From assembly GCA_964394645.1 (NCBI GenBank), contig CAYMYC010000001.1, positions 117,299 through 181,298 on the forward strand: a DNA stretch of 64,000 nt, in the 5' to 3' direction. The notes below the pieces were generated by a model. It saw only the letters and a program-made list of their open reading frames with translations. It was not told where the DNA came from and made no database searches. This document shows positions 22,686-58,697 of the stretch, one piece after another (position 1 is the first letter of the stretch; each line of letters opens with the position of its first letter). This stretch comes from an uncultured Gammaproteobacteria bacterium. Its GTDB lineage: Bacteria; Patescibacteriota; Microgenomatia; Levybacterales; GWA1-39-11. Made by a program: the position numbers and the translations under genes.

Positions 22686-22972
22686 CGTTCTTCATTTAAT
22701 ATTACTTTCCCAATAAACGAAGTAAGAAAAATAATAAAAATTGAAACATTTCAGGATGCTAATAAATTACGTTTTGATTACGCGAAACACAACCCATTTC
22801 CTCTTCAGATTTCTTAATTGTTAGAATGAGAGTTCTCATTGTAGGGGTTAGCCTCGTTGCGTGCTTGCATTTCTCTTGCAACTTCTATATAATAACTTTT
22901 ACTCATGTTTAGGTTTACTACCGAGACTGAATGGAATACTACATAAGAGCTTAGCTGCATTTTTTGCGTATG

Positions 22973-23000
22973 AAGCGACTTTATGTAGTCGCTTTTTTTT
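22973..23000 (+). terminator. Strong intrinsic-terminator-like hairpin at the end of the 315-nt rpsJ-rplC spacer
   Basis: AAGCGACT-ttatgt-AGTCGCTT stem followed by T8; ends immediately before the rplC start. Confidence 0.5.
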
Positions 23001-23012
23001 GTGTTTAAGTAT

Positions 23013-23891
23013 ATGTCTTTACAAGCAATTATTGGAAAAAAAATAGATCAGACGCAAGCATTTTTGGAAGACGGAAGACGAATTCCTCTTTCATTAATTT
23101 CTGTGTCTGGAAATGTTATTGCGCAAGTGAAGACACTGGAAAAGGATAAATACACTTCTGTACAGCTTGGATTTGGAGATAAAAAAAAGGCAGATAAGGC
23201 AACTACAGGACATATAAAAAAAGCGGGACTTACAAAAACGCCCCGCTTTTTTCGTGAAGTAAAAGTTGAAGATATCGCAGGGTATGAGGTTGGGGCAGTT
23301 GTGAATGTTGAAGAAATGCTAGAGCTGGGAGACGTTATTGATGTAACTGGTACATCAAAGGGAAAAGGGTACGCGGGGGTAGTTAAAAGACACGGATTTA
23401 AAGGTGGACCAAGAACCCATGGACAGTCTGATCGTGAGCGCGCACCTGGCTCAAGCGGTCAAACAACAACACCTGGACGTGTTTATAAGGGGAAGAGGAT
23501 GTCTGGTCGTATGGGGAATGAGCGTGTGACTATCAAAAATCTGACAGTTGTTGATATTAAAGATGGTGTAATTTACGTTCGTGGTTTAGTTCCTGGCGTA
23601 AAGGGTTCGCTAGTAATGATCTCAAAGGTGAAAGAAGATAAGAGAAGTCGTGCGACAAAGAAGAAATTTGTTCCTCTTTTCACAATTAAAGAAGAAGTTG
23701 TTGAAGACAAGAGTGCAGAGCCTGTTGTTGTAGAGACTGTAGAAGTTGAGGCACTTCCTGAAGAGCCACAGAAAGTAGTTGAAGATCAGACAGTGGAAGT
23801 AGTTGAGCCTAAGGAGGCAGTAAAAGAAGAATCAAAGACAGACGAAAAATTAAAAAAAGACGCTCCTGATGTAAAAGAGGAGGATAAGTAA
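23013..23891 (+). CDS. rplC: 50S ribosomal protein L3 (with ~85-aa Lys/Glu-rich C-terminal extension)
   Basis: L3 core (GKKIDQTQAF..DGRRIP, GYAGVVKRHGF). Start at second ATG 23013 (MSLQAIIGKK); the ORF-track ATG 23001 is an alternative. Confidence 0.9.
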   Translation: MSLQAIIGKKIDQTQAFLEDGRRIPLSLISVSGNVIAQVKTLEKDKYTSVQLGFGDKKKADKATTGHIKKAGLTKTPRFFREVKVEDIAGYEVGAVVNVEEMLELGDVIDVTGTSKGKGYAGVVKRHGFKGGPRTHGQSDRERAPGSSGQTTTPGRVYKGKRMSGRMGNERVTIKNLTVVDIKDGVIYVRGLVPGVKGSLVMISKVKEDKRSRATKKKFVPLFTIKEEVVEDKSAEPVVVETVEVEALPEEPQKVVEDQTVEVVEPKEAVKEESKTDEKLKKDAPDVKEEDK

Positions 23892-23893
23892 TT

Positions 23894-24685
23894 ATGGCTG
23901 ATAAAAAAATAAAAAAAGAGGTAGTCGTAAAAAAGACAAATCTAACTGTTAAAAAAACAGTTGTAAAGTCGGTAAAGAAGACTGAAAAAAGCACGGAAGA
24001 TACGAAAAAAAACAACGTTAAAGTAAATAAGCCTGCTGAAATAGCGACTACTTCCAAAGACACATTTTCAGTAGATGTTTATGGATTGGACGGCAAGGTG
24101 TCAGGGAAAGTAAATATTCCCACTGAAATCTTTAAAGCAAAAGTTAACCTTACTTTAATGGCGCAGGCTGTAAGAGTATATCTTGCTACACAAAGAAGTG
24201 GAACATCTTCTACAAAAACACGATCAGAAGTTTCAGGAACAACCAAAAAGATGTATCGCCAGAAGGGTACAGGGCGTGCCCGCCATGGGGCAGCAAAAGC
24301 ACCCATTTTTGTGGGTGGAGGAATTGCCTTTGGACCAAAGCCTAAAAGTTTTGCTCTTACTCTTCCGAAGAAAATGAGAAGAAAAGCGCTTTTCTCAGCC
24401 TTAACAAGTAAGTATTCAGAAAATAATCTTAGAATTCTAGATGCTTCACAGGCGACAGGGAAAACAAAAGAAATAGTAAGTACATTTAAAAATCTTGGAT
24501 TAACAAAAAAAATAACAGTTGTAGTTACCCCAGAAGAGAAACAAGTTGCCCGAGCAGCAAGAAATATTAAAGGAGTAACAGTTGAGCACGTTGCGAATTT
24601 AAATACATACAGTGTTTTAAATAGTAATACAGTTGTTTTTGCAAGAGACGCACTTATCGTTTTACAGAGCACGTTCTTGAAGTAA
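23894..24685 (+). CDS. rplD: 50S ribosomal protein L4 (with ~55-aa Lys-rich N-terminal extension)
   Basis: L4/L1e family core after the K-rich leader; position in S10 operon. Confidence 0.9.
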   Translation: MADKKIKKEVVVKKTNLTVKKTVVKSVKKTEKSTEDTKKNNVKVNKPAEIATTSKDTFSVDVYGLDGKVSGKVNIPTEIFKAKVNLTLMAQAVRVYLATQRSGTSSTKTRSEVSGTTKKMYRQKGTGRARHGAAKAPIFVGGGIAFGPKPKSFALTLPKKMRRKALFSALTSKYSENNLRILDASQATGKTKEIVSTFKNLGLTKKITVVVTPEEKQVARAARNIKGVTVEHVANLNTYSVLNSNTVVFARDALIVLQSTFLK

Positions 24686-28245: not shown

Positions 28246-28620
28246 ATGGTACAACACAGGACAAAATTAATAGTAGCAGACAACTCAGGAGTTAAAGAGT
28301 TGATGGTAATTCATATTTATGGTGGATCAACGAGAAGAAAAGGACATATTGGTAGTATTCTTGGATGCGTTGTGAAAAGATCACTTCCGAATACCCAATT
28401 TAAAAAAGGGGATAAGGTGAAAGCAGTATTAGTGCGTTCAAGAAAAGAATATAAAAGAATTGATGGGACCTATATTAGATTTTCAGAGAATGCTGGGGTT
28501 GTTATAGAGAATGCAGAAACAAAAAACCCTGTAGGCACAAGAATTTTTGGTCCTATAGCACGAGAAATTAAGGAAGAAGGTTTTGCAAAAATTGCGTCTT
28601 TAGCAAATCACGTTGTTTAA
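28246..28620 (+). CDS. rplN: 50S ribosomal protein L14
   Basis: [15 protein letters not shown]...; canonical L14. Confidence 0.95.
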
Positions 28621-28638: not shown

Positions 28639-28938
28639 ATGAAAATAAAAAAAGGAGATACAGTTCGAATTACTCGAGGAAAAGATAAGGGGAAAGAGGG
28701 AGTCGTTGAAAAAGTGAAGGCAGGAACAATTGTTGTTCCAGGAGTAAACGAATTCAAGAGACATATAAAGAAAAGCGCAACTGGACAGAAGTCTGAAATT
28801 GTTACTATTACTAAACCAATGCAGGCTTCAGTGGTTGCACTGATTTGTCCAAAGTGTAAAAAGCAAACACGTATTGGTTATGTGATAAAAGAAAACGGAA
28901 AAATGAGAATTTGTAGAAAATGCAAAAAAGAGATTTAG
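28639..28938 (+). CDS. rplX: 50S ribosomal protein L24 (KOW domain plus C-terminal CxxC..CxxC)
   Basis: KOW motif (GDTVRITRGKDKGKEG); C-terminal CPKC...CRKC putative Zn ribbon. Confidence 0.9.
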   Translation: MKIKKGDTVRITRGKDKGKEGVVEKVKAGTIVVPGVNEFKRHIKKSATGQKSEIVTITKPMQASVVALICPKCKKQTRIGYVIKENGKMRICRKCKKEI

Positions 28939-28953
28939 AAAAACATTAAAGCT

Positions 28954-29067
28954 ATGAAAGTACAAGCGTCAATTAAAAAAAGATGTAAAAAATGTAAGGT
29001 TATAAAAAGACGAGGAGTCCTGTTTATAATTTGTGAGATTCCAAAGCATAAACAGAGACAGGGGTAA
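28954..29067 (+). CDS. rpmJ: 50S ribosomal protein L36 (relocated into the spc region)
   Basis: Hand-found 37-aa [40 protein letters not shown] matching the L36 Zn-ribbon consensus; too short for the ORF track; lies between rplX and rplE instead of infA-rpsM. Confidence 0.85.
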
Positions 29068-29093
29068 ATTAAGATAATACGAAAAATAATACT

Positions 29094-29636
29094 ATGCAAA
29101 CATATAAAGAAACATTTGAGAAAGAAATCGTAAAAAAGCTTCAGCAAGATTTGGGGCTTAAGAATGTAATGTCTGTGCCAAGGCTAAAAAAAATAGTAGT
29201 AAATACCAGCACTAAGGACTTTCTTTCTGATAAGAAAAACTTGGAACGTGCAGCAGAAGATTTAGGAATAATTACTGGACAAAAAGCAAGGGTAGCTCGA
29301 GCTAAGGTGTCGATTGCAACATTTAAATTAAGAGAAGGGGATAAACTTGGTTTAGTCGTAACGCTAAGAGGTAAGCGGATGTATGATTTTTATGAAAAAC
29401 TTGTTAAAATTGTCTTCCCTCGGGTTCGTGACTTTTCGGGAGTATCTGAAAAGTGGTTGGATGGGCAGGGGAATTTAAGTATTGGTTTTTCAGAAAATAC
29501 AGTATTTCCGGAAATAGATCCAGGAAAGGTAGAGAAAATACGATCCTTACAGGTAACAATTGTTACAAATGCAGAGGATAATAAGCAAGCAAAAGCATTA
29601 TTTGAAGCAATGGGTATGAAATTTAAGAAAAATTAA
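29094..29636 (+). CDS. rplE: 50S ribosomal protein L5
   Basis: 180 aa; canonical L5. Confidence 0.93.
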
Positions 29637-29641
29637 AACAT

Positions 29642-29827
29642 ATGGCAAAAAAATCAAGCATAGTTAAGTTTCAACATAAACAGAAATTTAAAACAAGAGA
29701 AGTAAATAGATGTGCTCTATGTGGACGTTCTCGTGCATATTTGCGCCGTTTTGGTTTGTGTAGAATTTGCTTTAGAGAAAAAGCACTGAAAGGAGAATTA
29801 CCAGGAGTAACAAAGGCGAGTTGGTAA
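29642..29827 (+). CDS. rpsZ: 30S ribosomal protein S14 type Z (Zn-binding)
   Basis: 61 aa with CxxC...CxxC ([14 protein letters not shown]). Confidence 0.92.
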
Positions 29828-29840
29828 GTAAAAAAAATAT

Positions 29841-30227
29841 ATGTATACAGTAGGCGACTTTTTAATTCAAATAAAAAATGGGTACATGGCTCGTAAGAAA
29901 GAGTTAGTAGTTCCTTACGCAAAGATAGTGTTATCAATGGGGCAAATTCTAGCAAAAGAGGGATATATAAAGACAGCAGAGGTTGTGGACAGTAACGGGA
30001 GAAAGATGATTACCATAAAATTGCTCTATAAAAACAAAAGACCAGCGTTAAAAGATGTCAAGTTAGTTTCAAAACCATCTCTTCACCGTTATGTAACAAA
30101 ATCAAGAATTAGAAGATTTGCGGGAAATTTTGGGATTTCAGTTGTTTCAACAAGTAGAGGAGTCATGACAGGAAAGGAGGCCCTGCAGCAAGGAGTTGGT
30201 GGAGAGTTATTGTGCGAGATCTCCTAG
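29841..30227 (+). CDS. rpsH: 30S ribosomal protein S8
   Basis: 128 aa; S8 fold, expected position. Confidence 0.92.
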   Translation: MYTVGDFLIQIKNGYMARKKELVVPYAKIVLSMGQILAKEGYIKTAEVVDSNGRKMITIKLLYKNKRPALKDVKLVSKPSLHRYVTKSRIRRFAGNFGISVVSTSRGVMTGKEALQQGVGGELLCEIS

Positions 30228-30243
30228 CTACATTTAAATATTT

Positions 30244-30795
30244 ATGTCAAATAATATTGGGAAAAAACTAATAAAAATAGAAGATGGAGTACAGATTCAG
30301 GTCAATGATAGCGAAGTAGTGGTAACTGGAGCGAAGGGCTCTTTAACAGCAAGGATTCCTGAAGGTGTAGAAATAGAGATAACAGACGGAAGCGCAAAAA
30401 TTAAAAGAGCTGTGAAGGACCCCAATTCAGGGAAGTATGCAGGTCTAATTCGTGCAATTCTATTCAATATGGTAGAGGGTGTTTCAAAGGGATTTAAAAA
30501 AGATTTGGAACTCTCAGGGGTAGGATATAGAGCAAAAGTGGAAGGTAGAGATTTAGTTCTTAATGTAGGGTTTGCAAATGCCGTAAGGATATCTCCTCCG
30601 GAAGGGATTACTATTGCGGTTTCTGAAAACACCATTTCAGTAAGTGGTATTGATAAAGCACTGATTGGTGATATTGCATCAAAAATTCGTGAGGTAAGAA
30701 TCCCTGATCCTTATAAAGCAAAAGGAATTAAGTATGCAGGTGAGAAAATAAGAAGAAAAGTAGGAAAGGCCGCAAAGGCAGTCGGAGGAAAATAG
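30244..30795 (+). CDS. rplF: 50S ribosomal protein L6
   Basis: 183 aa; two L6 repeats. Confidence 0.92.
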   Translation: MSNNIGKKLIKIEDGVQIQVNDSEVVVTGAKGSLTARIPEGVEIEITDGSAKIKRAVKDPNSGKYAGLIRAILFNMVEGVSKGFKKDLELSGVGYRAKVEGRDLVLNVGFANAVRISPPEGITIAVSENTISVSGIDKALIGDIASKIREVRIPDPYKAKGIKYAGEKIRRKVGKAAKAVGGK

Positions 30796-30846
30796 CTGCT
30801 TAAAATATGCAGCCCTAATAAAATAGGAGTATAAAATATTAAAATT

Positions 30847-31212
30847 ATGAAAAGTACAAAAGAAGAAAAAATTAAAAAAGCAAGAATTGAAAGAAGGAAA
30901 TTGAGGACAAGAAAAAAGATATTATCTATGTCTACCTCGCCAAGACTTTCTGTTTTTCGCTCAAACATGAAAATGTATGCGCAAATTATTGATGATAAGA
31001 AAGGTGTGACCATGGTATCTGTCCATGAAAAAGAATTACAAGACGCAGTTGGTACAAAGATGGATAGATCTGGGAAATTAGGAGAGTTAATTGCAAAAAA
31101 AGCACTCGATAAAAAAATTGAAGGAGTAGTCTTTGATAAAGGATCATATAGATATCATGGGCGTGTGAAAGCATTTGCGGAAGGTGCACGAAAGGGAGGA
31201 TTAAAATTTTAA
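30847..31212 (+). CDS. rplR: 50S ribosomal protein L18
   Basis: 121 aa; L18/L5e family. Confidence 0.9.
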   Translation: MKSTKEEKIKKARIERRKLRTRKKILSMSTSPRLSVFRSNMKMYAQIIDDKKGVTMVSVHEKELQDAVGTKMDRSGKLGELIAKKALDKKIEGVVFDKGSYRYHGRVKAFAEGARKGGLKF

Positions 31213-31215
31213 TAT

Positions 31216-31686
31216 ATGGATAACAATAATTCTATGGAAAAATTTGAAGAAAAGGTAATTCAAGTTTCCCGAGTCTCAAAAAAGACAAAAGGGGGGAATA
31301 AGGTTAGATTTGCTGCATTGGTGGTAGTGGGTGATAGGCGAGGAAAAGTTGGAATTGGACTTGGGAAGTCTGGTGATGTGGCACAGGCAATAGCAAAGGC
31401 CGTGTCATATGCTAAGAGAAGGATGATTTTTGTACCAATACATAATGAAACAATCACGCAGCAGATCAGAGTAAAAAAAGGTGCCGCACAAGTGCTCTTA
31501 AAGCCTGCACCCAAGGGTACCGGAATTATTGCAGGTGGTGCGATTAGAAGTGTTGTTGAAGTAGCTGGAATTAGAAATATATCATCCAAGATTTTAGGAT
31601 CTTCTAATAAGGCAGGAAATGCTCAGGCAACATTTATGGCATTAACGCAACTTGCACAAGACTATGAAGCAAGGGAGAATATTTAA
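31216..31686 (+). CDS. rpsE: 30S ribosomal protein S5
   Basis: 156 aa; dsRBD-like plus S5 C-terminal domain (GRRGKVGIGLGKS). Confidence 0.93.
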   Translation: MDNNNSMEKFEEKVIQVSRVSKKTKGGNKVRFAALVVVGDRRGKVGIGLGKSGDVAQAIAKAVSYAKRRMIFVPIHNETITQQIRVKKGAAQVLLKPAPKGTGIIAGGAIRSVVEVAGIRNISSKILGSSNKAGNAQATFMALTQLAQDYEARENI

Positions 31687-31687
31687 T

Positions 31688-32128
31688 ATGCAGCTACACA
31701 ATTTACCAAAAATAACAACAAAAGGATTAAGGCGCGTAGGGCGTGGGCATGGATCAGGACGCGTTAAAACTTCAGGAAGAGGAACGAAGGGTCAAAAAGC
31801 AAGAAGAGATATTAAGCTTCATTTTGAGGGTGGTGCTCTTCCTTTAATAAAGCGTTTACCGTTCTTGAAGGGTAAGGGCAGAAATAAAACAATTAATCAT
31901 GCTCCTATCGTTTTAAATGTTAAAGATTTTAAAGGACTTCCTGAAAAAACAGTGATTGATTTAGATTTTCTTAAAAAGTATAAACTAGTAGATATTGATA
32001 AAGCGAAGACGTATGGCGTAAAAATATTAGGAGACGGAGAGGTAACAGTTTCTCTAATAGTTAATTTTCCAGTTTCAAAAATAGCTAAGACAAAGATAGA
32101 AAAAGCGGGCGGGACAGTTTCCGTATGA
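31688..32128 (+). CDS. rplO: 50S ribosomal protein L15
   Basis: Start at ATG 31688 (MQLHNLPK...), directly after the rpsE stop, not the ORF-track Met at 31652; GRGxGSGxGKT motif. No L30 gene between S5 and L15. Confidence 0.9.
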
Positions 32129-33411
32129 ATCTTTTTTTAAAACTTTTTAGAAATAGCGTAAGAGATAGGGAAATTCGAAAGAAAATCCTTATTACGCTTT
32201 TTCTGCTCCTCATATTCAAGTTGTTTGCGCACATACCAGTTTCTGGTGTAAATATAGCACAACTAAAAAATCTTTTTGCCCAAAATCAGCTCTTAGGGTT
32301 TTTGGATATCTTCTCAGGAGGAACACTTTCCAATTTTTCGATTTTAGCCCTAGGATTAAACCCGTATATTTATGCGTCAATAGTCTTACAACTTTTGACA
32401 ATTGTTTACCCAAAGCTTGAGGCGCTAGCTAAGGAAGGGGAGTATGGGAAGCAAAAAATAAATCAATACACACGCTACATAACAATCCCGCTCGCAATAG
32501 TTCAGGGGATAGGTATGTATGCTCTTTTAAGAAATCAAAACATCGTTTCAAGTCTTTCGCCATTGGAAATTGTGTCTTTTATTGCCACATTAACTTGTGG
32601 AACGATGATTGCTATGTGGATTGGGGAACTTATCTCTGAGCAGGGTATTGGGAACGGAATTTCAATTCTTATTTTTGCGGGAATTGTTGGTCAAATACCA
32701 GTTATGTTTATGCAAACGGTTACAACAATCACCGCTGAGCAATTCTTAAATATAGGTGTTATCATTGTTTCTGCAGTTCTTCTTGTGGCTGCAGTTGTTG
32801 CAATTAATGAGGCTGTAAGGCGTGTACCGATTTATTATGCGAAACGGGTGAGAGGTTCTAAGATGCTTGGGGGTCAATCAACACATCTGCCATTAAAATT
32901 GAATCAGGCAGGAGTTATTCCAATAATTTTTGCTGTTTCTTTAGTATTACTTCCTTCTGTTGTGGCTAATTTTTTAATGACTACTCGCAACAATACGCTT
33001 TCTATAATTGGAACAAGTATTTCAACGTACCTTGACCCAAACGGCATACTTTATAATACTTTGTATTTCCTATTGGTTGTAGGATTTACCTATTTTTATA
33101 CTGCTGTAGTTTTTAATCCATCAAAAATAGCTGAGGAAATACAAAAGTATGGTGGGTTTATACCTGGGGTAAGACCGGGTAAGCCGACTGCATCATTTTT
33201 AAACTTTATTGTTACAAGAATAACTCTTGCTGGTGCAGTATTTTTAGGTATAATTGCAGTATTGCCGAATATAGGACGCGTGATAACCGGAAATCAGACG
33301 CTTCTTATAGGGGGAACAAGTATTTTAATTGTTGTATCAGTTGTTATTGAAACTGTTAAAATATTAGATACGCAAATGGTAACAAAAAGTTATGAGAAGT
33401 TTTTAAAATAA
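32125..33411 (+). CDS. secY: Preprotein translocase subunit SecY
   Basis: 428 aa; 10 TM helices with SecY signatures. Confidence 0.95.
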
Positions 33412-33426
33412 AAAATTACTTAATAT

Positions 33427-33969
33427 ATGAAGCTAATATTAATAGGTATCCAGGGAAGCGGTAAGTCCACACAAGGAAATATACTTTCTGAGAAATTGCA
33501 TATTCCCTATCTTTCTTCAGGACATATATTCCGTGAAATGGCAAAGGAGAAAACTCCTATTGGTCGCTACATTAAAGAGACTATGAATGCAGGATTTTTA
33601 ATCCCAGATGATAAAACACTTGAGATAGTTATTGAGTATTTAGGGCGATCAGAATATCAGAGTGGTTATATTCTTGATGGATTTCCTAGAACTGTTCCGC
33701 AGGCTGAAGCGTTTCCAAATGGAGTAGAGAAGGTAATTTATCTTCGGGTGACTGACAAAGAGGCTTTATGGAGGTTAGCTGGTCGTGACGAAGAAGGAGT
33801 GCGTGAAGATAACACATTGAAAGCTATTCTGAAGCGTATAAATGAATTTCATACAAAAACAGAGCCAGTAATTGAATATTATAGAGAAAAGGGTAAACTG
33901 CTTGAAATAAATGGTGAAAGAAATATAGAAGAAATTGCCTCTGAGATACTTTCAAATATCCAGAAATAA
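33427..33969 (+). CDS. adk: Adenylate kinase (short type)
   Basis: P-loop GIQGSGKST, NMP-binding and GFILDGFPRT motifs; 180 aa. Confidence 0.85.
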   Translation: MKLILIGIQGSGKSTQGNILSEKLHIPYLSSGHIFREMAKEKTPIGRYIKETMNAGFLIPDDKTLEIVIEYLGRSEYQSGYILDGFPRTVPQAEAFPNGVEKVIYLRVTDKEALWRLAGRDEEGVREDNTLKAILKRINEFHTKTEPVIEYYREKGKLLEINGERNIEEIASEILSNIQK

Positions 33970-34539
33970 ATGATAAAACCTCAAATTCTAGGAATTACAG
34001 GAGCGTTCGGAAGTGGGAAATCTACTGCTTCTGAATATATTGTTTCATTAGGGTATAAAAAAATAAGCTTATCGAAGTTCTTAGAGGATGAGCTTGTATC
34101 ATTAGGAGAAACAGCCATAACACGTGAAAAACTCCAAGACCTTGGTAACTCCTGGCGTACTGAGTATGGAAGTGGTGTATTGGGGAAAAAAGCTGTTGAA
34201 TTAATTCTCACAAATAAGTTCGATAGAGTAGTTGTGGAGGGTATTCGAAATATTGAAGAAATTGGTGAGCTAAAAAAAATAGGAACAGTGACTTTAATTG
34301 CTCTCATGGTTGATAGAAGTGTTAGGTATAAGAGGTTGGAGAAGTTGACAAGAAGAGAGAAATTAACGCCTGAGTTGTTTGAGAAATTAGACGCAAGAGA
34401 TTTGGGGCTGGGAGAGAGCGACTCTGGACTCCAAACAGCTCTTTGTATTGCTCTGTCAGACATATATATAAATAACAATACAAACGAGAAAGATTTATTC
34501 ATTAAAATCGAAGATGTAATAAAGAGTTTGGGGAGATAG
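33970..34539 (+). CDS. P-loop nucleotide kinase, dephospho-CoA kinase-like
   Basis: ILGITGAFGSGKST Walker A; 189 aa; CoaE/NMP-kinase fold assigned by motif only. Confidence 0.45.
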   Translation: MIKPQILGITGAFGSGKSTASEYIVSLGYKKISLSKFLEDELVSLGETAITREKLQDLGNSWRTEYGSGVLGKKAVELILTNKFDRVVVEGIRNIEEIGELKKIGTVTLIALMVDRSVRYKRLEKLTRREKLTPELFEKLDARDLGLGESDSGLQTALCIALSDIYINNNTNEKDLFIKIEDVIKSLGR

Positions 34540-34570
34540 GAGAAAATATTTTTAATCAGCATATTTTAAA

Positions 34571-35143
34571 ATGCAAAATATATACGTTTTAATAGGACCA
34601 CCGTTATCCGGGAAAGAGACACAAGGAGAACTGCTGGAAATTTCTTTGGGAGGTATTCCTAGATTTTCAATGGGACATTTAATCCGTGAGGCAAGAAATA
34701 CGGATCAGAAATTTGAAAATGCGTATCAAAAATATAGTATGCAGGGAAAACACTTACCAAATGATATAAAATTTTCGCTTTTAGCGGATAAAATGAATAA
34801 GGCAAATCAATCTGGTTTTATTCTGGACAATTTTCCTGCAACTGCAGAAGATGTAGAATACCTAGAGAGATATCTTGTTGGGAAAGATTTGAAGATAAAA
34901 ACTGTAATAGTGCTAAACGTTTCGGGAGATGAAACAAAAAAACGTTTTGAAATAGCGAGAAATAGGAGGGGTCGCGCAGATGATACAATTAAAAACATTC
35001 TCGATAGAAGAGAAATACAAGATACTGATCGTATGGCAGTGCTAAATCATTATGAAAAGATGGGGGTATTAAAAATGATTAATGGAGAGCAGTCTGTAGA
35101 GAAAGTTCATCAGGATATATTAAGGGAGATTGATCAATCGTAA
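34571..35143 (+). CDS. Adenylate kinase-family paralog with non-canonical P-loop
   Basis: Adk-like order of motifs (GPPLSGKETQ, GFILDNFPAT, RADD) but with Gly->Leu and Gly->Glu changes in the P-loop. Confidence 0.6.
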   Translation: MQNIYVLIGPPLSGKETQGELLEISLGGIPRFSMGHLIREARNTDQKFENAYQKYSMQGKHLPNDIKFSLLADKMNKANQSGFILDNFPATAEDVEYLERYLVGKDLKIKTVIVLNVSGDETKKRFEIARNRRGRADDTIKNILDRREIQDTDRMAVLNHYEKMGVLKMINGEQSVEKVHQDILREIDQS

Positions 35144-35153
35144 ATTTTAACAA

Positions 35154-35933
35154 ATGAAAAATAATACTAAGACGAATAGTCAAATAGAGATTATGGAAAA
35201 GGCAGGAGAGATGCTTGGAGTAGTTTTGGCAGAAACTTTAGAGCTTGTTAAGCCTGGGATAACAGAGCTTGAGTTGGATAGCTTTGCGGATAAACGAATA
35301 GTAGAGTTGGGTGGTTTTCCCGGATTCAAGAAGGTTGAGGGGTATAAACATGCTATTTGTGTGGCAACCAATGATATTGTGGTTCATGGTATCCCGAAAA
35401 AAAGGATTCTTCGGGAAGGGGATATCATAGCGGTAGACGCTGGAGTATTTCTAGACGGTTTTCACTCTGATATGGCTGAGACAGTTGTAGTTGGAAAAGC
35501 AAAGAATAATGAGATTTACCAATTTTTAGATTCTGGTAAACGGGCTATGTACGCTGGTATTATGCAGGCAAAGCCAGGTAATCGTGTTGGAGATATTTCA
35601 AAAGCAATACAAGAGATAGTGGAAAAACAAGGAGGATATTCAGTTGTACATTCTCTGGTCGGGCATGGTGTAGGAAAAGACCTTCATGAAGATCCGCAAA
35701 TTCCAGGTTATTTGCGTGGGAAAATAGAGAAAACACCGCTTCTTGTTCCTAATATGACCATTGCTGTTGAAGTTATTTACAATATGGGTGCGCAGGAAGT
35801 TGAGTATGAGGGTTCAGACGACTGGACAATAGCGACTAAAGATCATTCTTTGTCTGGTGTTTTCGAAAGAACAATCGTTATAACTGATGTAGGACCAAAA
35901 CTTTTAACACACTTTCCAGGAGAGCAACTATAG
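35154..35933 (+). CDS. map: Methionine aminopeptidase type I
   Basis: 259 aa; metal ligands in D..D..H..E..E context (VGHGVGKDLHE). Confidence 0.9.
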   Translation: MKNNTKTNSQIEIMEKAGEMLGVVLAETLELVKPGITELELDSFADKRIVELGGFPGFKKVEGYKHAICVATNDIVVHGIPKKRILREGDIIAVDAGVFLDGFHSDMAETVVVGKAKNNEIYQFLDSGKRAMYAGIMQAKPGNRVGDISKAIQEIVEKQGGYSVVHSLVGHGVGKDLHEDPQIPGYLRGKIEKTPLLVPNMTIAVEVIYNMGAQEVEYEGSDDWTIATKDHSLSGVFERTIVITDVGPKLLTHFPGEQL

Positions 35934-36029
35934 CCTTGATATGAGGCTTAGTATCTGATAGAATATACAAATACTTAAGCTCTCTTAGAGGAATCTCAAG
36001 GGAGAATTTTTGAGTTTAGGGATATACGG

Positions 36030-36251
36030 ATGGCGCATCAAGGTTCAATCGAAGTAGACGGAATTGTAAAAGAGGTTTTACCTAACACTTTATTTAGAGT
36101 TGAAATAGAAGGTGGAAGGGTAGTTCTTTGTCACCTCTCAGGTAAGATGAGGATTCATTTTATAAAAATTTTACCTGGAGATAGGGTACGGATAGAAATG
36201 ACGCCATACGATAAAACAAAGGGAAGAATTACCTTTAGGCATAGGAGCTAA
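36030..36251 (+). CDS. infA: Translation initiation factor IF-1
   Basis: 73 aa S1-like OB fold ([19 protein letters not shown]). Confidence 0.93.
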
Positions 36252-36302
36252 AATTTAATCATTGGTGAATTGTAAAAGTTATTCACTATTTTCTTAACAA
36301 AT

Positions 36303-36695
36303 ATGAGAGTTGCAGGTGTAAATGTACCAGACGGAAAAAGAGCAGATATCGCACTTACCTATATTTATGGGGTAGGTCGTTCTAACGTGAAAGAAATTTT
36401 AGTAAAAGCTAAAATAGAACCTGATAGAAGAATAAATACTCTATCTGAGGAAGAGTTAACGCAAATTCAGAAAGCACTTGATTCAATTAAAATTGAAGGA
36501 GATTTAAGGGGTGAAATCTTTGAAGATATTAAGCGCCTTAAAAATATAAGTTCTTATAGGGGATTAAGACATGCAAGAAATCTTCCAGCACGGGGTCAAA
36601 GAACTCGTTCTAATGCTCGCACAAAACGTGGAAAGAGAGTCACTATCGGAGCGATCAAAAAAGAAGTAGCTGAAAAAATGGGTCTCAATAAGTAG
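36303..36695 (+). CDS. rpsM: 30S ribosomal protein S13
   Basis: 130 aa; MRVAGVNVPDGKR... Confidence 0.93.
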   Translation: MRVAGVNVPDGKRADIALTYIYGVGRSNVKEILVKAKIEPDRRINTLSEEELTQIQKALDSIKIEGDLRGEIFEDIKRLKNISSYRGLRHARNLPARGQRTRSNARTKRGKRVTIGAIKKEVAEKMGLNK

Positions 36696-41878: not shown

Positions 41879-43447
41879 TTACGGGATGTAGTATAGTGGT
41901 AGTACGCTGCGCTGGGGGTGCAGTAGTCCGCGTTCGATTCGCGGCATCCCGACACTGAGAGAAGAGCCGGCGGAAAGCTCCGCCGGTGAAAGTCCCGCAA
42001 TCGCGGGACGGATTGAGTCAAAGCCCTTTTTAAAATTGGCGTAAACACAGCCATCCTCTAAAAAGAAGTTCGAGCCGACATGTTTTGCTAGATTTGCCAA
42101 ATCTAGTTGGTTATTTTTTGCGCGCGCTATTTTGTCGCATGACGATGCGACATTTATGAATTCCCTAAGAGGTTCGAGCGAGCGAGAACCTCCCTCCTCC
42201 AAAACCTCTATCTTTTCCTGAATTTTTATCTTTTCTTCAAAGAGTTCATTCTTCTTTCTCTTGTAGTTATCGCCCTCAATGTCCCCCTCAAGATAACTAT
42301 CAAGAAGAATGTCCATCTTCTTATCGAGAGACGAAGCTTCCTCTTTTAATTTTCTCATCCTTACATCCGATAAGCCTTTTTCGGATATTTCATCCCTTTC
42401 TACTAACCCCAGCCACCGGTCGCGCCATGAGGTAGGGATGGAAACGGATAAAACAATTTTTCTTAATTGGTCTTCAAGTTCTTGGGCAGTCACCATTTTT
42501 TGGGAACACGGACCCATCTTTTTGGTACAGCGGTAATAAATATAAGTTGCCGAACGGTTAGTCCCTTTATAAAACTTTACATGCCTTTCGGCAGTTACGG
42601 AAGCACCGCACTCTTTACAGCGAAGAAGACCCAAAAACGTAAAGACCGGAAGCTTACTATTTTGCCTAACTTTTCTATTTAACTTTTCCTGGACTTTATT
42701 GAACAACTCTTTAGAGATGAAAGTCTTGTGGGTCCCGAGATGATACTCGCCGTTGTATTTTAAAATGCCGATGTAGAATTTGTTGGACAATATCTTTCTG
42801 ACTTGGTTAAGGTGTAAAGGCTTTCCGTTTTCCTTTTTTATCCCCAATTTTAAAAAGTAATTTGAAATATCCGTAAAGGTTTTATCCTGTTCGCAAAACA
42901 ACTCAAATGCCCCTTTTATGGCCCGAGCTTCGTTTGGGACTATATCAATGCCTCGAGTCTTCGGGTTGTTGGAATAACCATAGGTAGTCTTCCCAGGCCA
43001 GACGCCATTTCGTATCTTTTGCCGAAGCCCCCTTTTAACATTCTCGCTAAGATTGTCGATGTAATATTTGCTTTGGCCGAAGGCGATATTTAACATGAAC
43101 TTTCCCTGTGGAGTGTTATCAAACCAAAATGTAGGAAACTTTAAATCCTTTAATTTTCCGGTATCAAGCAAATAGATGATCTTGCCCCCGTCAATAGAAT
43201 TTCTTGCAAGTCTGTCCGGATGCCAAGCAAGAATACCACCGGCTCTGCCTCTTTCGATAAGTTGCATGACTTTAGCAAATTTTTCCCGTCCTGGGGCTTT
43301 GGCGGTCTTTGCCTCTTCAATAACTTCGAGGATCTCAAGCTTCTCCCGTTTTGCGAACTCAAAAAGCTCAGCAATTTGCGCTTCAATGGATAAAACCTGC
43401 TTATCGGCTTCGTCTCTTGATTTACGGCAGTAAATTATGTATTTCAT
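41879..43447 (-). CDS. Large serine recombinase (resolvase/invertase catalytic domain + recombinase domain + Zn ribbon + coiled coil)
   Basis: N-terminal YCRKSRDE catalytic-Ser motif; Cys-rich ribbon (CKECG...CTKKMGPC); 522 aa. The last ~55 codons are read through IR1-L and antisense to tRNA-Pro. Confidence 0.85.
   Translation of the reverse strand: MKYIIYCRKSRDEADKQVLSIEAQIAELFEFAKREKLEILEVIEEAKTAKAPGREKFAKVMQLIERGRAGGILAWHPDRLARNSIDGGKIIYLLDTGKLKDLKFPTFWFDNTPQGKFMLNIAFGQSKYYIDNLSENVKRGLRQKIRNGVWPGKTTYGYSNNPKTRGIDIVPNEARAIKGAFELFCEQDKTFTDISNYFLKLGIKKENGKPLHLNQVRKILSNKFYIGILKYNGEYHLGTHKTFISKELFNKVQEKLNRKVRQNSKLPVFTFLGLLRCKECGASVTAERHVKFYKGTNRSATYIYYRCTKKMGPCSQKMVTAQELEDQLRKIVLSVSIPTSWRDRWLGLVERDEISEKGLSDVRMRKLKEEASSLDKKMDILLDSYLEGDIEGDNYKRKKNELFEEKIKIQEKIEVLEEGGSRSLEPLREFINVASSCDKIARAKNNQLDLANLAKHVGSNFFLEDGCVYANFKKGFDSIRPAIAGLSPAELSAGSSLSVGMPRIERGLLHPQRSVLPLYYIP
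41882..41952 (+). tRNA. tRNA-Pro (anticodon GGG), hand-folded
   Basis: Cloverleaf: acceptor CGGGATG/CATCCCG, D-arm GTAT-AGTGGTA-GTAC, anticodon stem CTGCG/TGCAG with loop CTGGGGG (G37), T-arm CCGCG-TTCGATT-CGCGG, discriminator A; CCA not encoded. Confidence 0.8.
41950..42052. repeat. IR1-L: ~103-bp inverted repeat arm (near-exact partner at 43487-43590)
   Basis: Reverse complement of 43487-43590 (1 mismatch, 1-nt indel). Contains internal GC hairpins CCGGCGG-aaagct-CCGCCGG and GTCCCGC-aatc-GCGGGAC. Confidence 0.9.
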
Positions 43448-56601: not shown

Positions 56602-57399
56602 ATGGGTCGAGAGTATAGAAACTATTCTCCAGAAAAGTCCATACTTTTAAAAGATGATCTCTTGCCTGCCGCAAAAAATTGGGTTAATTGGTGCTTTACT
56701 CCTCTTCAGCAGAAGCAAATAGAGCTTGGTTTAGACACTGTTATTAGAATGGAAGGATTACGAACAAAAAAATTCCCAGTCCCAGACGATTTTTTTCAGA
56801 CAAACTTAGACCATACACATAATATTATTAAAGATGCAAAACATATCCATGCAACAAAAAAGGAAATGTCAAAGTATATTAATTTTTCTGATGTTCAAAT
56901 AGATGGATTTGGTCATGATATCCCCGAAATATTAAGAAATGTAGGAGATGTGCAGCCCACAGAAAGAACAAAACGTGATTGGGCTAGAAAACGCTTGGAA
57001 CATATAGCTGCAAAAAATTATCTTATCCCTCTGATTAAAGATCCAGAAGCCCGTGCGGATGCGTTGAGACGATATATTGAGTATGAAAAAGCCGACCCAA
57101 GCAATTTAGAGGTTCAAATGGCAAAATATCTAGATCAAAAAGATGGAACCATAACCTATGCACATATTGTTTTTAATCGGTTTCAGGTAGAAACTGCAGA
57201 CACATTAAATATAATGCGGCTACATCTTTATGAAACGTTGCCTAAGATGATTACTCCCGCGATAAATTTATTAGTTGGTCTTCCAACAAGAGAAGCAAGA
57301 TTTGAGATGCGTGACATCTTAGTAAATGACCTGAAAGAGTTGGATAAGTTTGCACCTTCAGGCGTAGCAAGTCCTTACATTGAAAGGTTTACAGGGTAA
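56602..57399 (+). CDS. HD-domain phosphohydrolase, YfbR/HDDC2-like 5'-(deoxy)nucleotidase candidate
   Basis: H..H...GHDIPEILRNVGDVQP motif (HDxxE...GD..P); 265 aa. Confidence 0.45.
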   Translation: MGREYRNYSPEKSILLKDDLLPAAKNWVNWCFTPLQQKQIELGLDTVIRMEGLRTKKFPVPDDFFQTNLDHTHNIIKDAKHIHATKKEMSKYINFSDVQIDGFGHDIPEILRNVGDVQPTERTKRDWARKRLEHIAAKNYLIPLIKDPEARADALRRYIEYEKADPSNLEVQMAKYLDQKDGTITYAHIVFNRFQVETADTLNIMRLHLYETLPKMITPAINLLVGLPTREARFEMRDILVNDLKELDKFAPSGVASPYIERFTG

Positions 57400-57929
57400 T
57401 GCAAAATAGTTGGTATGTTATAACGGCAGGTCCTTCAGCAGGGAAAACTACAACCATAGAGCTTCTTTCACAAAAAGGCTATAGAGTTTCACATGAAACT
57501 GCTCGTAGATATATAGAATCGAAAATGAGCTTAGGGTATACTATGGCTGAAATAAGAGCGAATCAGCTTAATTTCCAAAAGGATATACTTCATATGCAAA
57601 TAGAGCTTGAAGGGTTGCTAGACCCTCATGAGCTTACATTTTTAGATAGGGCAGTACCAGACAGTATGGCATATCTGCGTTTTCGTAAGTGTGAAATACC
57701 ATATGATATTGAGGCGATACATAAGAGTACTTCAAAAAAATATAAAAAGGCTTTTGTTTTAGATGGACTTCCTGTGGTTAAGGACAATGTCAGAATTGAA
57801 TCAGACAAGCAAGCCGCGGAGATAACAAGATTTATTGAGAAGAGCTACTCTGAATTAGATATAGAAATAGTCAAAGTTCCAATAATGAGTAGAATTGAGC
57901 GGGTGGAGTTTATTTTAAAGAATTTATAA
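57399..57929 (+). CDS. P-loop NTPase/nucleotide kinase (AAA_28-like)
   Basis: Walker A GPSAGKTT; 176 aa; start overlaps upstream stop by 1 nt (TAATG), suggesting translational coupling. Confidence 0.55.
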   Translation: MQNSWYVITAGPSAGKTTTIELLSQKGYRVSHETARRYIESKMSLGYTMAEIRANQLNFQKDILHMQIELEGLLDPHELTFLDRAVPDSMAYLRFRKCEIPYDIEAIHKSTSKKYKKAFVLDGLPVVKDNVRIESDKQAAEITRFIEKSYSELDIEIVKVPIMSRIERVEFILKNL

Positions 57930-57938
57930 GTATATTAT

Positions 57939-58697
57939 CTATTTTTTAATTTCGTCAATAAATTGTGAAAGGTGAGATAAATCTGAAAGCCCTTTAATTC
58001 CCATCTTTGCATCTATTGCCTCTCTTGTTAGCAAGAATATCTCAAGGGGTAAAGAAGCAAACTCTTCAGCTACATACGATAATCTACCAGGGTTTTTTTC
58101 TGGGGTAATTACCTTTAGGGCATTAGGTTTTTTGCTGTCTTCCAGAGGATATATTTCTCCTTCCCTCATTTGTTGCCACAAAATTGGTAGTCCCTTTTCT
58201 CTTCCATCTAACATGCTTCCTGCAAATTCATCAGGAGAGCCTATGTATACATTGTTAACCTTGTGAGTTAAAATTCTTGCAGTGCACATTGGGCATGGTT
58301 CCAGGCTAGTTATTATTGACCTTTCTTCGTTATGGTGAGGGGCAGCGCGTTGAAGGAGAATTCTATCTGCATATGTTTTTTCACCTCGCGCAAGGCTTTC
58401 TACGGCGTCAATTGCATCTTGCTCTGCGTGAAGGTGGGTGTCTTTTCTGCTGACAATTCCGTTCCTGCCTCCTATGACGTATTCTTTTCCACTATCCCTA
58501 AAGACATAAACAGCTCCTATCCCATAATTTCCTTCTTGGTTAGCAATAAGTGCTTGTTCGGCTGCATAAGATAAATATTCCTGAAAAGAGTATGTTTTGG
58601 AAGTTTCTCGCATCCTCTTAACTTCCGAATGAAAACGATTTTCCCTTGATGATTGTGGGGTGTGTTCTGTAATATTACTCATGCGTAAAGTATACAC
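57939..58697 (-). CDS. CDA-fold nucleoside/nucleotide deaminase (zinc-dependent)
   Basis: HAEQDAI and PCPMCTARI zinc motifs; ~90-aa N-terminal extension. Confidence 0.7.
   Translation of the reverse strand: MYTLRMSNITEHTPQSSRENRFHSEVKRMRETSKTYSFQEYLSYAAEQALIANQEGNYGIGAVYVFRDSGKEYVIGGRNGIVSRKDTHLHAEQDAIDAVESLARGEKTYADRILLQRAAPHHNEERSIITSLEPCPMCTARILTHKVNNVYIGSPDEFAGSMLDGREKGLPILWQQMREGEIYPLEDSKKPNALKVITPEKNPGRLSYVAEEFASLPLEIFLLTREAIDAKMGIKGLSDLSHLSQFIDEIKK

Follow-up and report, generated by a model that had tools for sequence, protein, structure and literature searches.

The window analysed here, a DNA stretch of 64 kb (64,000 nucleotides), carries the S10-spc-alpha ribosomal-protein supercluster of a Levybacteria genome (Candidate Phyla Radiation (CPR)/Patescibacteria, Microgenomates). 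The gene order was established from open reading frames (ORFs), followed by scans with hidden Markov models (HMMs) from Pfam and NCBIfam/TIGRFAM. Homologues of the L5 protein from the window bear the names Levybacteria or Levyibacteriota and the genome is therefore placed in the Microgenomates group of CPR; homologues of two kinases discussed below, K2 and K3, are likewise named Levybacteria. All genes of the cluster are on the plus strand, in the order tuf, rpsJ, rplC, rplD, rplW, rplB, rpsS, rplV, rpsC, rplP, rpmC, rpsQ, rplN, rplX, rpmJ, rplE, rpsN, rpsH, rplF, rplR, rpsE, rplO, secY, adk, K2, K3, map, infA, rpsM, rpsK, rpsD, rpoA, rplQ, rplM and rpsI. The cluster shares genes, orientation and tight spacing with the canonical bacterial spc/alpha operon from rpsJ to rplQ. 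However, compared with the canonical order (...rplX-rplE...rpsE-rpmD-rplO-secY-adk-map-infA-rpmJ-rpsM...), rpmJ, the gene for L36, is located between rplX and rplE, rpmD, the gene for L30, is missing, and adk is followed by two extra kinase genes. We regard these as three lineage features that are independent of each other.

The relocated rpmJ (28954-29067, +) is separated by 15 nt from the stop codon of rplX (28639-28938, +) and by 26 nt from the start of rplE (29094-29636, +); rplN (28246-28620, +) lies upstream of rplX. The 37-residue product passes both L36 models (PF00444, 66.0 bits against a cut-off of 26.1, E=3.2e-18; TIGR01022, 71.2 bits against a cut-off of 22.7, E=5.5e-20), and the original prediction, which had placed rpmJ between rplX and rplE and proposed to check this call with an L36 HMM, is thus borne out. 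It is the single L36 match within the window and has the zinc ligands C-x2-C-x12-C-x4-H, which are present in all relocated copies. Of the flanking genes, rplX encodes a 99-residue L24 with a C-terminal zinc ribbon of the CxxC...CxxC form (CPKC...CRKC in the translation), recognized by TIGR01079 (81.6 bits, cut-off 53.7) and PF17136, and homologues of the rplE product contain PF00281 and PF00673 and are named Levybacteria L5. Across the loci with relocated rpmJ, the spacers range from 0 to 22 nt upstream and from 3 to 42 nt downstream of the gene.

The usual site of rpmJ is directly upstream of rpsM, a positional habit that does not define the protein, and in the window the gene is not there. 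Instead, infA (36030-36251, +; IF-1, TIGR00008, 99.2 bits) and rpsM (36303-36695, +; S13, TIGR03631, 141.2 bits) are separated by a 51-nt spacer (36252-36302, +) that contains neither a gene nor a coding remnant. The spacer had been predicted to contain a hairpin. Its length and lack of a gene stand, and an 8-bp hairpin can indeed form, but the hairpin is neither significant (folding z = -0.42, with 59 of 200 shuffles folding as well or better) nor conserved: infA-rpsM spacers of relatives are 1 to 155 nt long, and the hairpin is common only to the closest relatives and disappears where the spacer is reduced to 1-28 nt. Given that its folding energy is no better than that of shuffled sequences and that it is not conserved, we rejected the hairpin both as a regulatory element and as a scar of rpmJ excision. 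A terminator scan revealed no terminator-like sites either near rpmJ or in this spacer.

A look-up of proteins identical to L36 of the window led to five contigs (three NCBI assemblies and two Logan runs), in each of which the gene order is that of the window. Further loci were collected by an L5-alignment scan of species-representative genomes together with a K2-alignment scan of metagenomes (at least 160 loci) and by targeted look-ups (seven loci), and the synteny of all of them was determined with a tblastn script. The rplX-rpmJ-rplE order is found in at least 17 related loci, 12 in the counted set and five added afterwards, comprising the window, L001-L009, L089 and L167-L172; their L5 proteins are at least ~66% identical to that of the window, and the gene order is the same in several independent assemblies publicly available through NCBI, Logan, ENA and JGI. 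In the counted set, rpmJ is directly upstream of rpsM in at least 84 loci and upstream of rplE in 12, and none of the loci among the matches listed has two copies. The canonical position is found in an assembly labelled Levybacteria (locus L166, GCA_016186645.1; infA-rpmJ-rpsM), in other CPR and in at least ~65 non-CPR loci. Thus, the synteny comparison with related CPR genomes that had been suggested confirms rplX-rpmJ-rplE in related Levybacteria, with the canonical arrangement elsewhere among the matches listed. In a neighbour-joining (NJ) tree based on the concatenation of eight proteins of the cluster (1358 columns, 200 bootstraps), the relocated loci that were included form one clade with 100% bootstrap support, and their sister is a large group with canonical rpmJ, to which L166 belongs.

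The simplest reading of these data is that a single lineage-specific translocation took place within the same gene cluster. The gene would have left its ancestral infA-rpmJ-rpsM position a single time, at the root of a Levybacteria subclade, for the rplX-rplE spacer ~7 kb upstream, and would have been inherited vertically thereafter. Relocated rpmJ remains in the same co-oriented, tightly spaced cluster and encodes an intact zinc-binding L36, with which the ribosome would still be supplied, and the move was probably selectively neutral. At least 120 L5 clusters of the protein database, all of the best matches listed, are at least 65% identical to the L5 of the window, and the subclade with relocated rpmJ is therefore large. 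As regards the mechanism, we found neither a two-copy intermediate nor traces of the gene at its former site, and the window lacks such repeats as might have mediated the move. No report of this gene order, or of the position of rpmJ in Levybacteria or CPR, was found in the literature searched, and the same applies to the tandem kinases; both had been predicted to be less commonly noted. As a gene-order variant, the translocation is new but minor. Nevertheless, it cleanly alters one of the best conserved gene orders of bacteria, apparently in a single event, and it can be used as a marker of a large Levybacteria subclade (at least 120 L5 clusters fall within the corresponding identity range).

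In L166, canonical rpmJ is flanked by 85-nt direct repeats, which represent a dispersed palindromic intergenic element present in 8 copies across the cluster (L166:6131-12547). Flanking direct repeats were rejected as a general mechanism of rpmJ excision, since similar repeats are found in one other of 77 canonical loci (L017) and are absent from the window. The same locus has a gene of the 23S_rRNA_IVP family between secY and adk.

The second departure from the canonical order concerns L30. The stop codon of rpsE (S5; 31216-31686, +; TIGR01021, 177.6 bits) and the ATG of rplO (L15; 31688-32128, +; TIGR01071, 104.4 bits) are separated by 1 nt, with no rpmD between them. A tblastn search of the 64 kb window with the L30 sequences of E. 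coli, B. subtilis and T. thermophilus yielded nothing credible; its best match (E=0.01, minus strand, 35887-36075) was rejected, as it is interrupted by a stop codon and extends from the end of map across the map-infA spacer into the beginning of infA. Accordingly, the predicted absence of L30, with rplO following rpsE after 1 nt, holds at the syntenic site as well as in the whole window, for which the proposed tblastn search gave no credible match. Among the matches listed, L30 is encoded between rpsE and rplO in none of the 46 CPR-type loci versus 39 of the 58 other loci, and the S5-L15 gap in the CPR-type loci has a median of 17.5 nt and a maximum of 125 nt. A passage of PMC12641178, citing Brown et al. 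2015, describes bL30 as absent across all CPR lineages, in agreement with the earlier remark that this loss is established for CPR. In this respect the window does not differ from other CPR/Patescibacteria ribosomes devoid of bL30: the loss of L30 is an already known CPR trait, and rpmD would be absent here as in all CPR.

Between secY (32125-33411, +; PF00344 on the orthologous gene in L001-L004) and map (35154-35933, +; type I methionine aminopeptidase, TIGR00500, 228 bits), HMM scans bear out the three consecutive P-loop kinase genes that had been predicted, namely, adk, K2 and K3. The gene at 33427-33969 (+; PF00406, 121.6 bits) is a normal short-LID adenylate kinase: its alignment with E. 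coli Adk shows the P-loop GIQGSGKST, DGFPRTVPQ, in which the DGFPRT motif is kept, the equivalent of Gln92 and the R..RED motif of the LID. It narrowly misses the NCBIfam equivalog cut-off (165.8 against 187). K2 (33970-34539, +) starts directly after the adk stop codon and is followed by K3 (34571-35143, +).

K2 is a P-loop kinase of 189 residues with a full-length match to Sulfolobus SSO1041 (PDB 3lw7/3h0k), an adenylate kinase-related protein of the UPF0200 family (E=3.7e-13 in a single-sequence search and 3.6e-18 for the profile of the K2 family, positions 7-186). An AlphaFold2 model of K2 (predicted local distance difference test score, pLDDT, of 92) has the same fold, with Foldseek TM-scores of 0.75-0.89 to SSO1041, for which one structure contains bound AMP. 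However, the identity of the two proteins is 28-29% and K2 scores 47.6 against a cut-off of 189 for PRK08356, which places it in a related family outside that orthologous group. The best HMM match of K2 is the kinase domain of the PADLOC dCTPase profile (E=1.5e-20, profile positions 156-322 of 630), and matches to the phrog_139 deoxynucleoside monophosphate (dNMP) kinase (E=3.6e-14) and the NCBIfam anti-phage dCTP deaminase (E=3.6e-12) were also obtained. Although K2 resembles both phage dNMP kinases and the DcdV-type kinase domain over essentially its whole length, it is a stand-alone protein encoded in a housekeeping cluster, without a deaminase domain and without phage context. The K2 family is characterized by the P-loop, an EGxRN motif at the position of DGFPR in Adk and an invariant arginine cluster in the LID region. 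K2 is a relative of UPF0200, dNMP kinases and the DcdV kinase domain with the nucleoside monophosphate (NMP) kinase fold, and it would phosphorylate (deoxy)nucleoside monophosphates.

K3 shares 32% identity with the product of the neighbouring adk and, in agreement with its designation as an Adk paralogue in the original prediction, has the Adk fold (PF00406, 74.5 bits); nonetheless, it belongs to a distinct subfamily. The motifs FSMGxLIRE, DNFPAT and RGRxDD are invariant in the family, and all 22 distinct K3 sequences that were aligned contain DNFPAT-x-(E/D)D, so that Arg88 of Adk is replaced by Ala and Gln92 by Asp or Glu (E. coli numbering). All named members of the family are labelled Levybacteria, and K3 scores below the cut-off of every NCBIfam adk equivalog. 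K3 thus represents a distinct, conserved Adk-like subfamily, and the loss of Arg88 and Gln92 makes it unlikely that the protein serves as another adenylate kinase. The Pfam scan revealed no PF02224 match in K3 that would point to homology with Cmk. Like the eukaryotic Adk-like UMP/CMP kinases (Dictyostelium 2ukd, human 1tev), K3 is a short-LID protein of the Adk fold, and it matches TIGR01359 (UMP-CMP kinase family, E=1.7e-26) and PDB 1tev (2.2e-14); it would likewise do the job that Cmk does in most bacteria. By contrast with these enzymes, which presumably retain the arginine of DGFPR, K3 lacks this arginine, and it scores better against bacterial Adk.

Metagenomic homologues of K2 are nearly always found in the order secY-adk-K2-X-map, mostly in loci with canonical rpmJ and an L5 that is 55-60% identical to that of the window. 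Because adk-K2 is also present in sister Levybacteria with canonical rpmJ, the array probably predates the rpmJ move. Slot X, which follows K2, is occupied either by K3 (at least ~25 loci) or by a Cmk matching PF02224 (at least ~23 loci), never by both among the matches listed. K3 and Cmk alternate even among close relatives: L124 (K3) and L114 (Cmk) share ~83% DNA identity on both sides of the slot, through the end of K2 and from the start of map onwards, and only the slot itself is non-homologous. Within the relocated-rpmJ clade, the adk-map interval contains K2-K3 in the group of the window, cmk alone in L008, L009 and L170 and no gene in L007, L167, L171 and L172. In identity rankings of L5, Adk, K2 and K3, the closest locus is L089, followed by the sister clade, consistent with vertical inheritance of the array. 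The adk-map interval looks like a nucleotide-metabolism slot and, in Levybacteria, would hold the nucleotide kinases adk, then K2, and then K3 or canonical Cmk. Since K3 replaces Cmk gene-for-gene between closely related genomes, it is probably a CMP-kinase analogue, a reading taken from the slot replacement alone; it would represent an Adk-derived kinase with a remodelled acceptor site that serves as a non-orthologous CMP (or UMP/CMP) kinase. CPR are expected to lack de novo nucleotide synthesis. Together, adk, K2 and K3 would convert salvaged (d)NMPs into the corresponding diphosphates, (d)NDPs, with the substrates of K2 and K3 being presumed ones.

Further genes were observed in this interval. 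A third Adk-like type, with an EGGFR motif and ~30% identity to adk, lies between adk and K2 in two Cmk-carrying loci, and a Nudix hydrolase gene separates cmk from map in one locus; the coordinates listed for the loci with these two kinds of genes are L127:9024-9653, L136:6151-6744 and L130:11256-11744.

Several other explanations have to be considered for the two extra kinases. K2 had been called a CoaE-like kinase, and the shared P-loop, a weak PF01121 match over it (E=7e-4), the name dephospho-CoA kinase given by JGI to K2 homologues and the presence of CoaE structures among the fold matches (TM-scores of 0.55-0.65) could all be taken to mean that K2 is CoaE. However, in the HMM classification that had been suggested for both extra kinases, PF01121 reaches 19.7 bits against a cut-off of 27 and aligns with residues 6-35 only, the LDLD of T. 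thermophilus TT1252, which includes the Asp-x-Asp of CoaE, corresponds to ISLS (Ser-Leu-Ser) in the K2 family, and the full-length matches, with far better E-values, are SSO1041, dNMP kinases and the DcdV kinase domain. The resemblance is therefore restricted to the P-loop, and the identification with dephospho-CoA kinase is very improbable. For K3, the same classification returned an Adk-like protein below the adk equivalogs. The PADLOC and NCBIfam matches cited above might, in turn, suggest that K2 is part of an anti-phage defence system of the dCTP-deaminase type, but they are restricted to the kinase segment of the profile, a deaminase domain is present neither in K2 nor next to it, and the gene is fixed between adk and K3/Cmk in at least ~50 loci, which is untypical of defence islands; a defence role thus appears scarcely conceivable. 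A different possibility is that K2 and K3 are not nucleotide-pool enzymes but ribosome- or translation-associated ATPases akin to Fap7/AK6, an Adk-like maturation factor of the small subunit. Indeed, both genes reside inside a ribosomal-protein supercluster, and the sole Pfam family of K2 is AAA_18, which we take to cover AK6/Fap7-type proteins as well. In addition, the set of ribosome biogenesis factors is reduced in CPR (PMC12641178). Yet the non-ribosomal genes adk and map normally reside at this location in most bacteria, and Cmk, a further Adk-like type and a Nudix gene are also found in the slot, in favour of a role in nucleotide metabolism. Moreover, K2 matches phage dNMP kinases, and neither its sequence matches nor the 50 listed Foldseek matches include Fap7/AK6, whereas SSO1041, Adk, UMP/CMP kinase and CoaE are present. 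We therefore consider a ribosomal function of the two proteins improbable.

For K3, the alternative is an Adk paralogue with impaired catalysis or a regulatory role, for instance one that binds or senses nucleotides, rather than a working NMP kinase. The replacement of DGFPRT by DNFPAT in all 22 sequences, with the loss of the arginine for the acceptor phosphate, and the scores below all NCBIfam adk equivalog cut-offs would fit such a role. On the other hand, the P-loop lysine, the equivalent of Arg36 (in LIRE), RGRxDD of the LID and the RRE arginines are conserved, which looks like purifying selection on catalysis, and K3 is cleanly exchanged with an enzyme, Cmk, in the same slot of related genomes; on balance, an impaired K3 seems unlikely. 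Finally, the position of rpmJ could in principle reflect an artefact of assembly, binning or annotation, or a recent rearrangement specific to one strain, considering that the sequence comes from metagenome-assembled genomes and that the public gene calls of several relatives omit rpmJ. Nevertheless, an identical order recurs in several independent assemblies from four sources at 66-100% L5 identity, the included loci constitute a clade with full (100%) support, and the junctions are short and clean spacers, which makes an artefact or a strain-specific event extremely unlikely. None of these alternatives fits the data as well as a single rpmJ translocation in a Levybacteria supercluster with a nucleotide-kinase slot.

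Collectively, we are fairly confident in the account as a whole, that is, a Levybacteria supercluster that underwent a single rpmJ translocation, lacks rpmD and contains a kinase slot in which K2 and K3 would function as NMP kinases. Several considerations weigh against it. The tree was built by simple NJ from proteins of the same cluster, and the same rpmJ position may occur in another lineage, the sampling outside Levybacteria amounting to ~85 loci among the matches listed. Co-transcription of relocated rpmJ with rplX and rplE is presumed from spacing, the spacers on both sides being short, with no terminator-like site nearby. Neither K2 nor K3 nor Cmk is found at the slot in L007, L167, L171 and L172, and in these genomes the array is either dispensable or has its functions encoded elsewhere. 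A search for cmk, limited to the 64 kb window, found none, with P-loop matches to adk only. For SSO1041/UPF0200, the closest solved relative of K2, no assigned function was found in the literature searched. With the loss of the Arg88 equivalent, which we assume to bind the acceptor phosphate in Adk and in the UMP/CMP kinases compared, K3 could be devoid of NMP-kinase activity.

A more far-reaching proposal, which we advance tentatively, is that Levybacteria possess, within the ribosomal-protein supercluster, a dedicated nucleotide-kinase module in which K3, an Adk-derived enzyme with a rebuilt acceptor site, repeatedly displaces Cmk in situ as a CMP or UMP/CMP kinase and K2 represents an uncharacterised cellular family of (d)NMP kinases that connects the archaeal UPF0200 proteins with phage dNMP kinases and with the kinase domain of DcdV. 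If this is true, K3 would show how an NMP kinase can work without Arg88, and K2 would give a first clue to the function of UPF0200 and of the kinase domain of DcdV. The kinase array is biologically more useful than the rpmJ move, as it brings together two uncharacterised families and a hypothesis on nucleotide salvage in CPR. It would also be a natural example of non-orthologous displacement of Cmk. Nothing here overturns current understanding.

The survey of loci also exposed pitfalls in public annotation. The gene calls of L167, L170, L171 and L172 do not include rpmJ at its new site in the rplX-rplE spacer, and those of L167, L171 and L172 also leave out the 61-residue rpsN; in all these cases tblastn finds intact genes. 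If a census of CPR ribosomal proteins is built on gene calls of this kind, L36 could be recorded as lost by mistake. Two apparent L36-L5 fusions, P0096 and P0099 (PF00444 and PF00281; L168:532-1230 and L169:464-1162), were rejected as an artefact of gene calling, in which the stop codon after L36 is read as Gln.

Other features of the cluster are as follows. Zinc-binding versions of L24 (28639-28938) and L36 (28954-29067) are accompanied by the short, 61-residue CxxC...CxxC form of S14 (29642-29827). The C-terminal tail of L3 (296 residues, 23001-23891) is long, acidic and rich in lysine, L4 (263 residues, 23894-24685) carries a lysine-rich N-terminal extension of ~60 residues, and L22 and L23 have Lys/Glu-rich ends. 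The gap between rpsJ and rplC is 315 nt long (22686-23000) and contains a terminator-like hairpin with a T-run at 22972-22995, directly before the GTG start of rplC. At the same spot, relatives have unrelated insertions, including ORFs of 45-126 residues without a Pfam match, a NUDIX gene, a methyltransferase gene and a cation-efflux gene. Promoter and terminator scans gave counts no higher than in shuffled sequences, and Rfam at gathering thresholds found no ribosomal-protein leader or other RNA family in the cluster, its sole match being tRNA-Pro at 41882.

Outside the cluster, the window contains two further nucleotide-metabolism genes, one for an AAA_28 P-loop protein (57399-57929, +) and, adjoining it, one for a 252-residue protein with a cytidine/dCMP deaminase domain (57939-58697, -); PADLOC gave no match for either of the two. 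A large serine recombinase gene (41879-43447, -), with Resolvase, Recombinase and Zn_ribbon_recom domains, overlaps at its end with tRNA-Pro(GGG) (41882-41953, +). In the region from 40 to 44 kb, the GC content rises up to ~0.40 and the GC skew turns negative, and this region may represent the edge of an integrated element.

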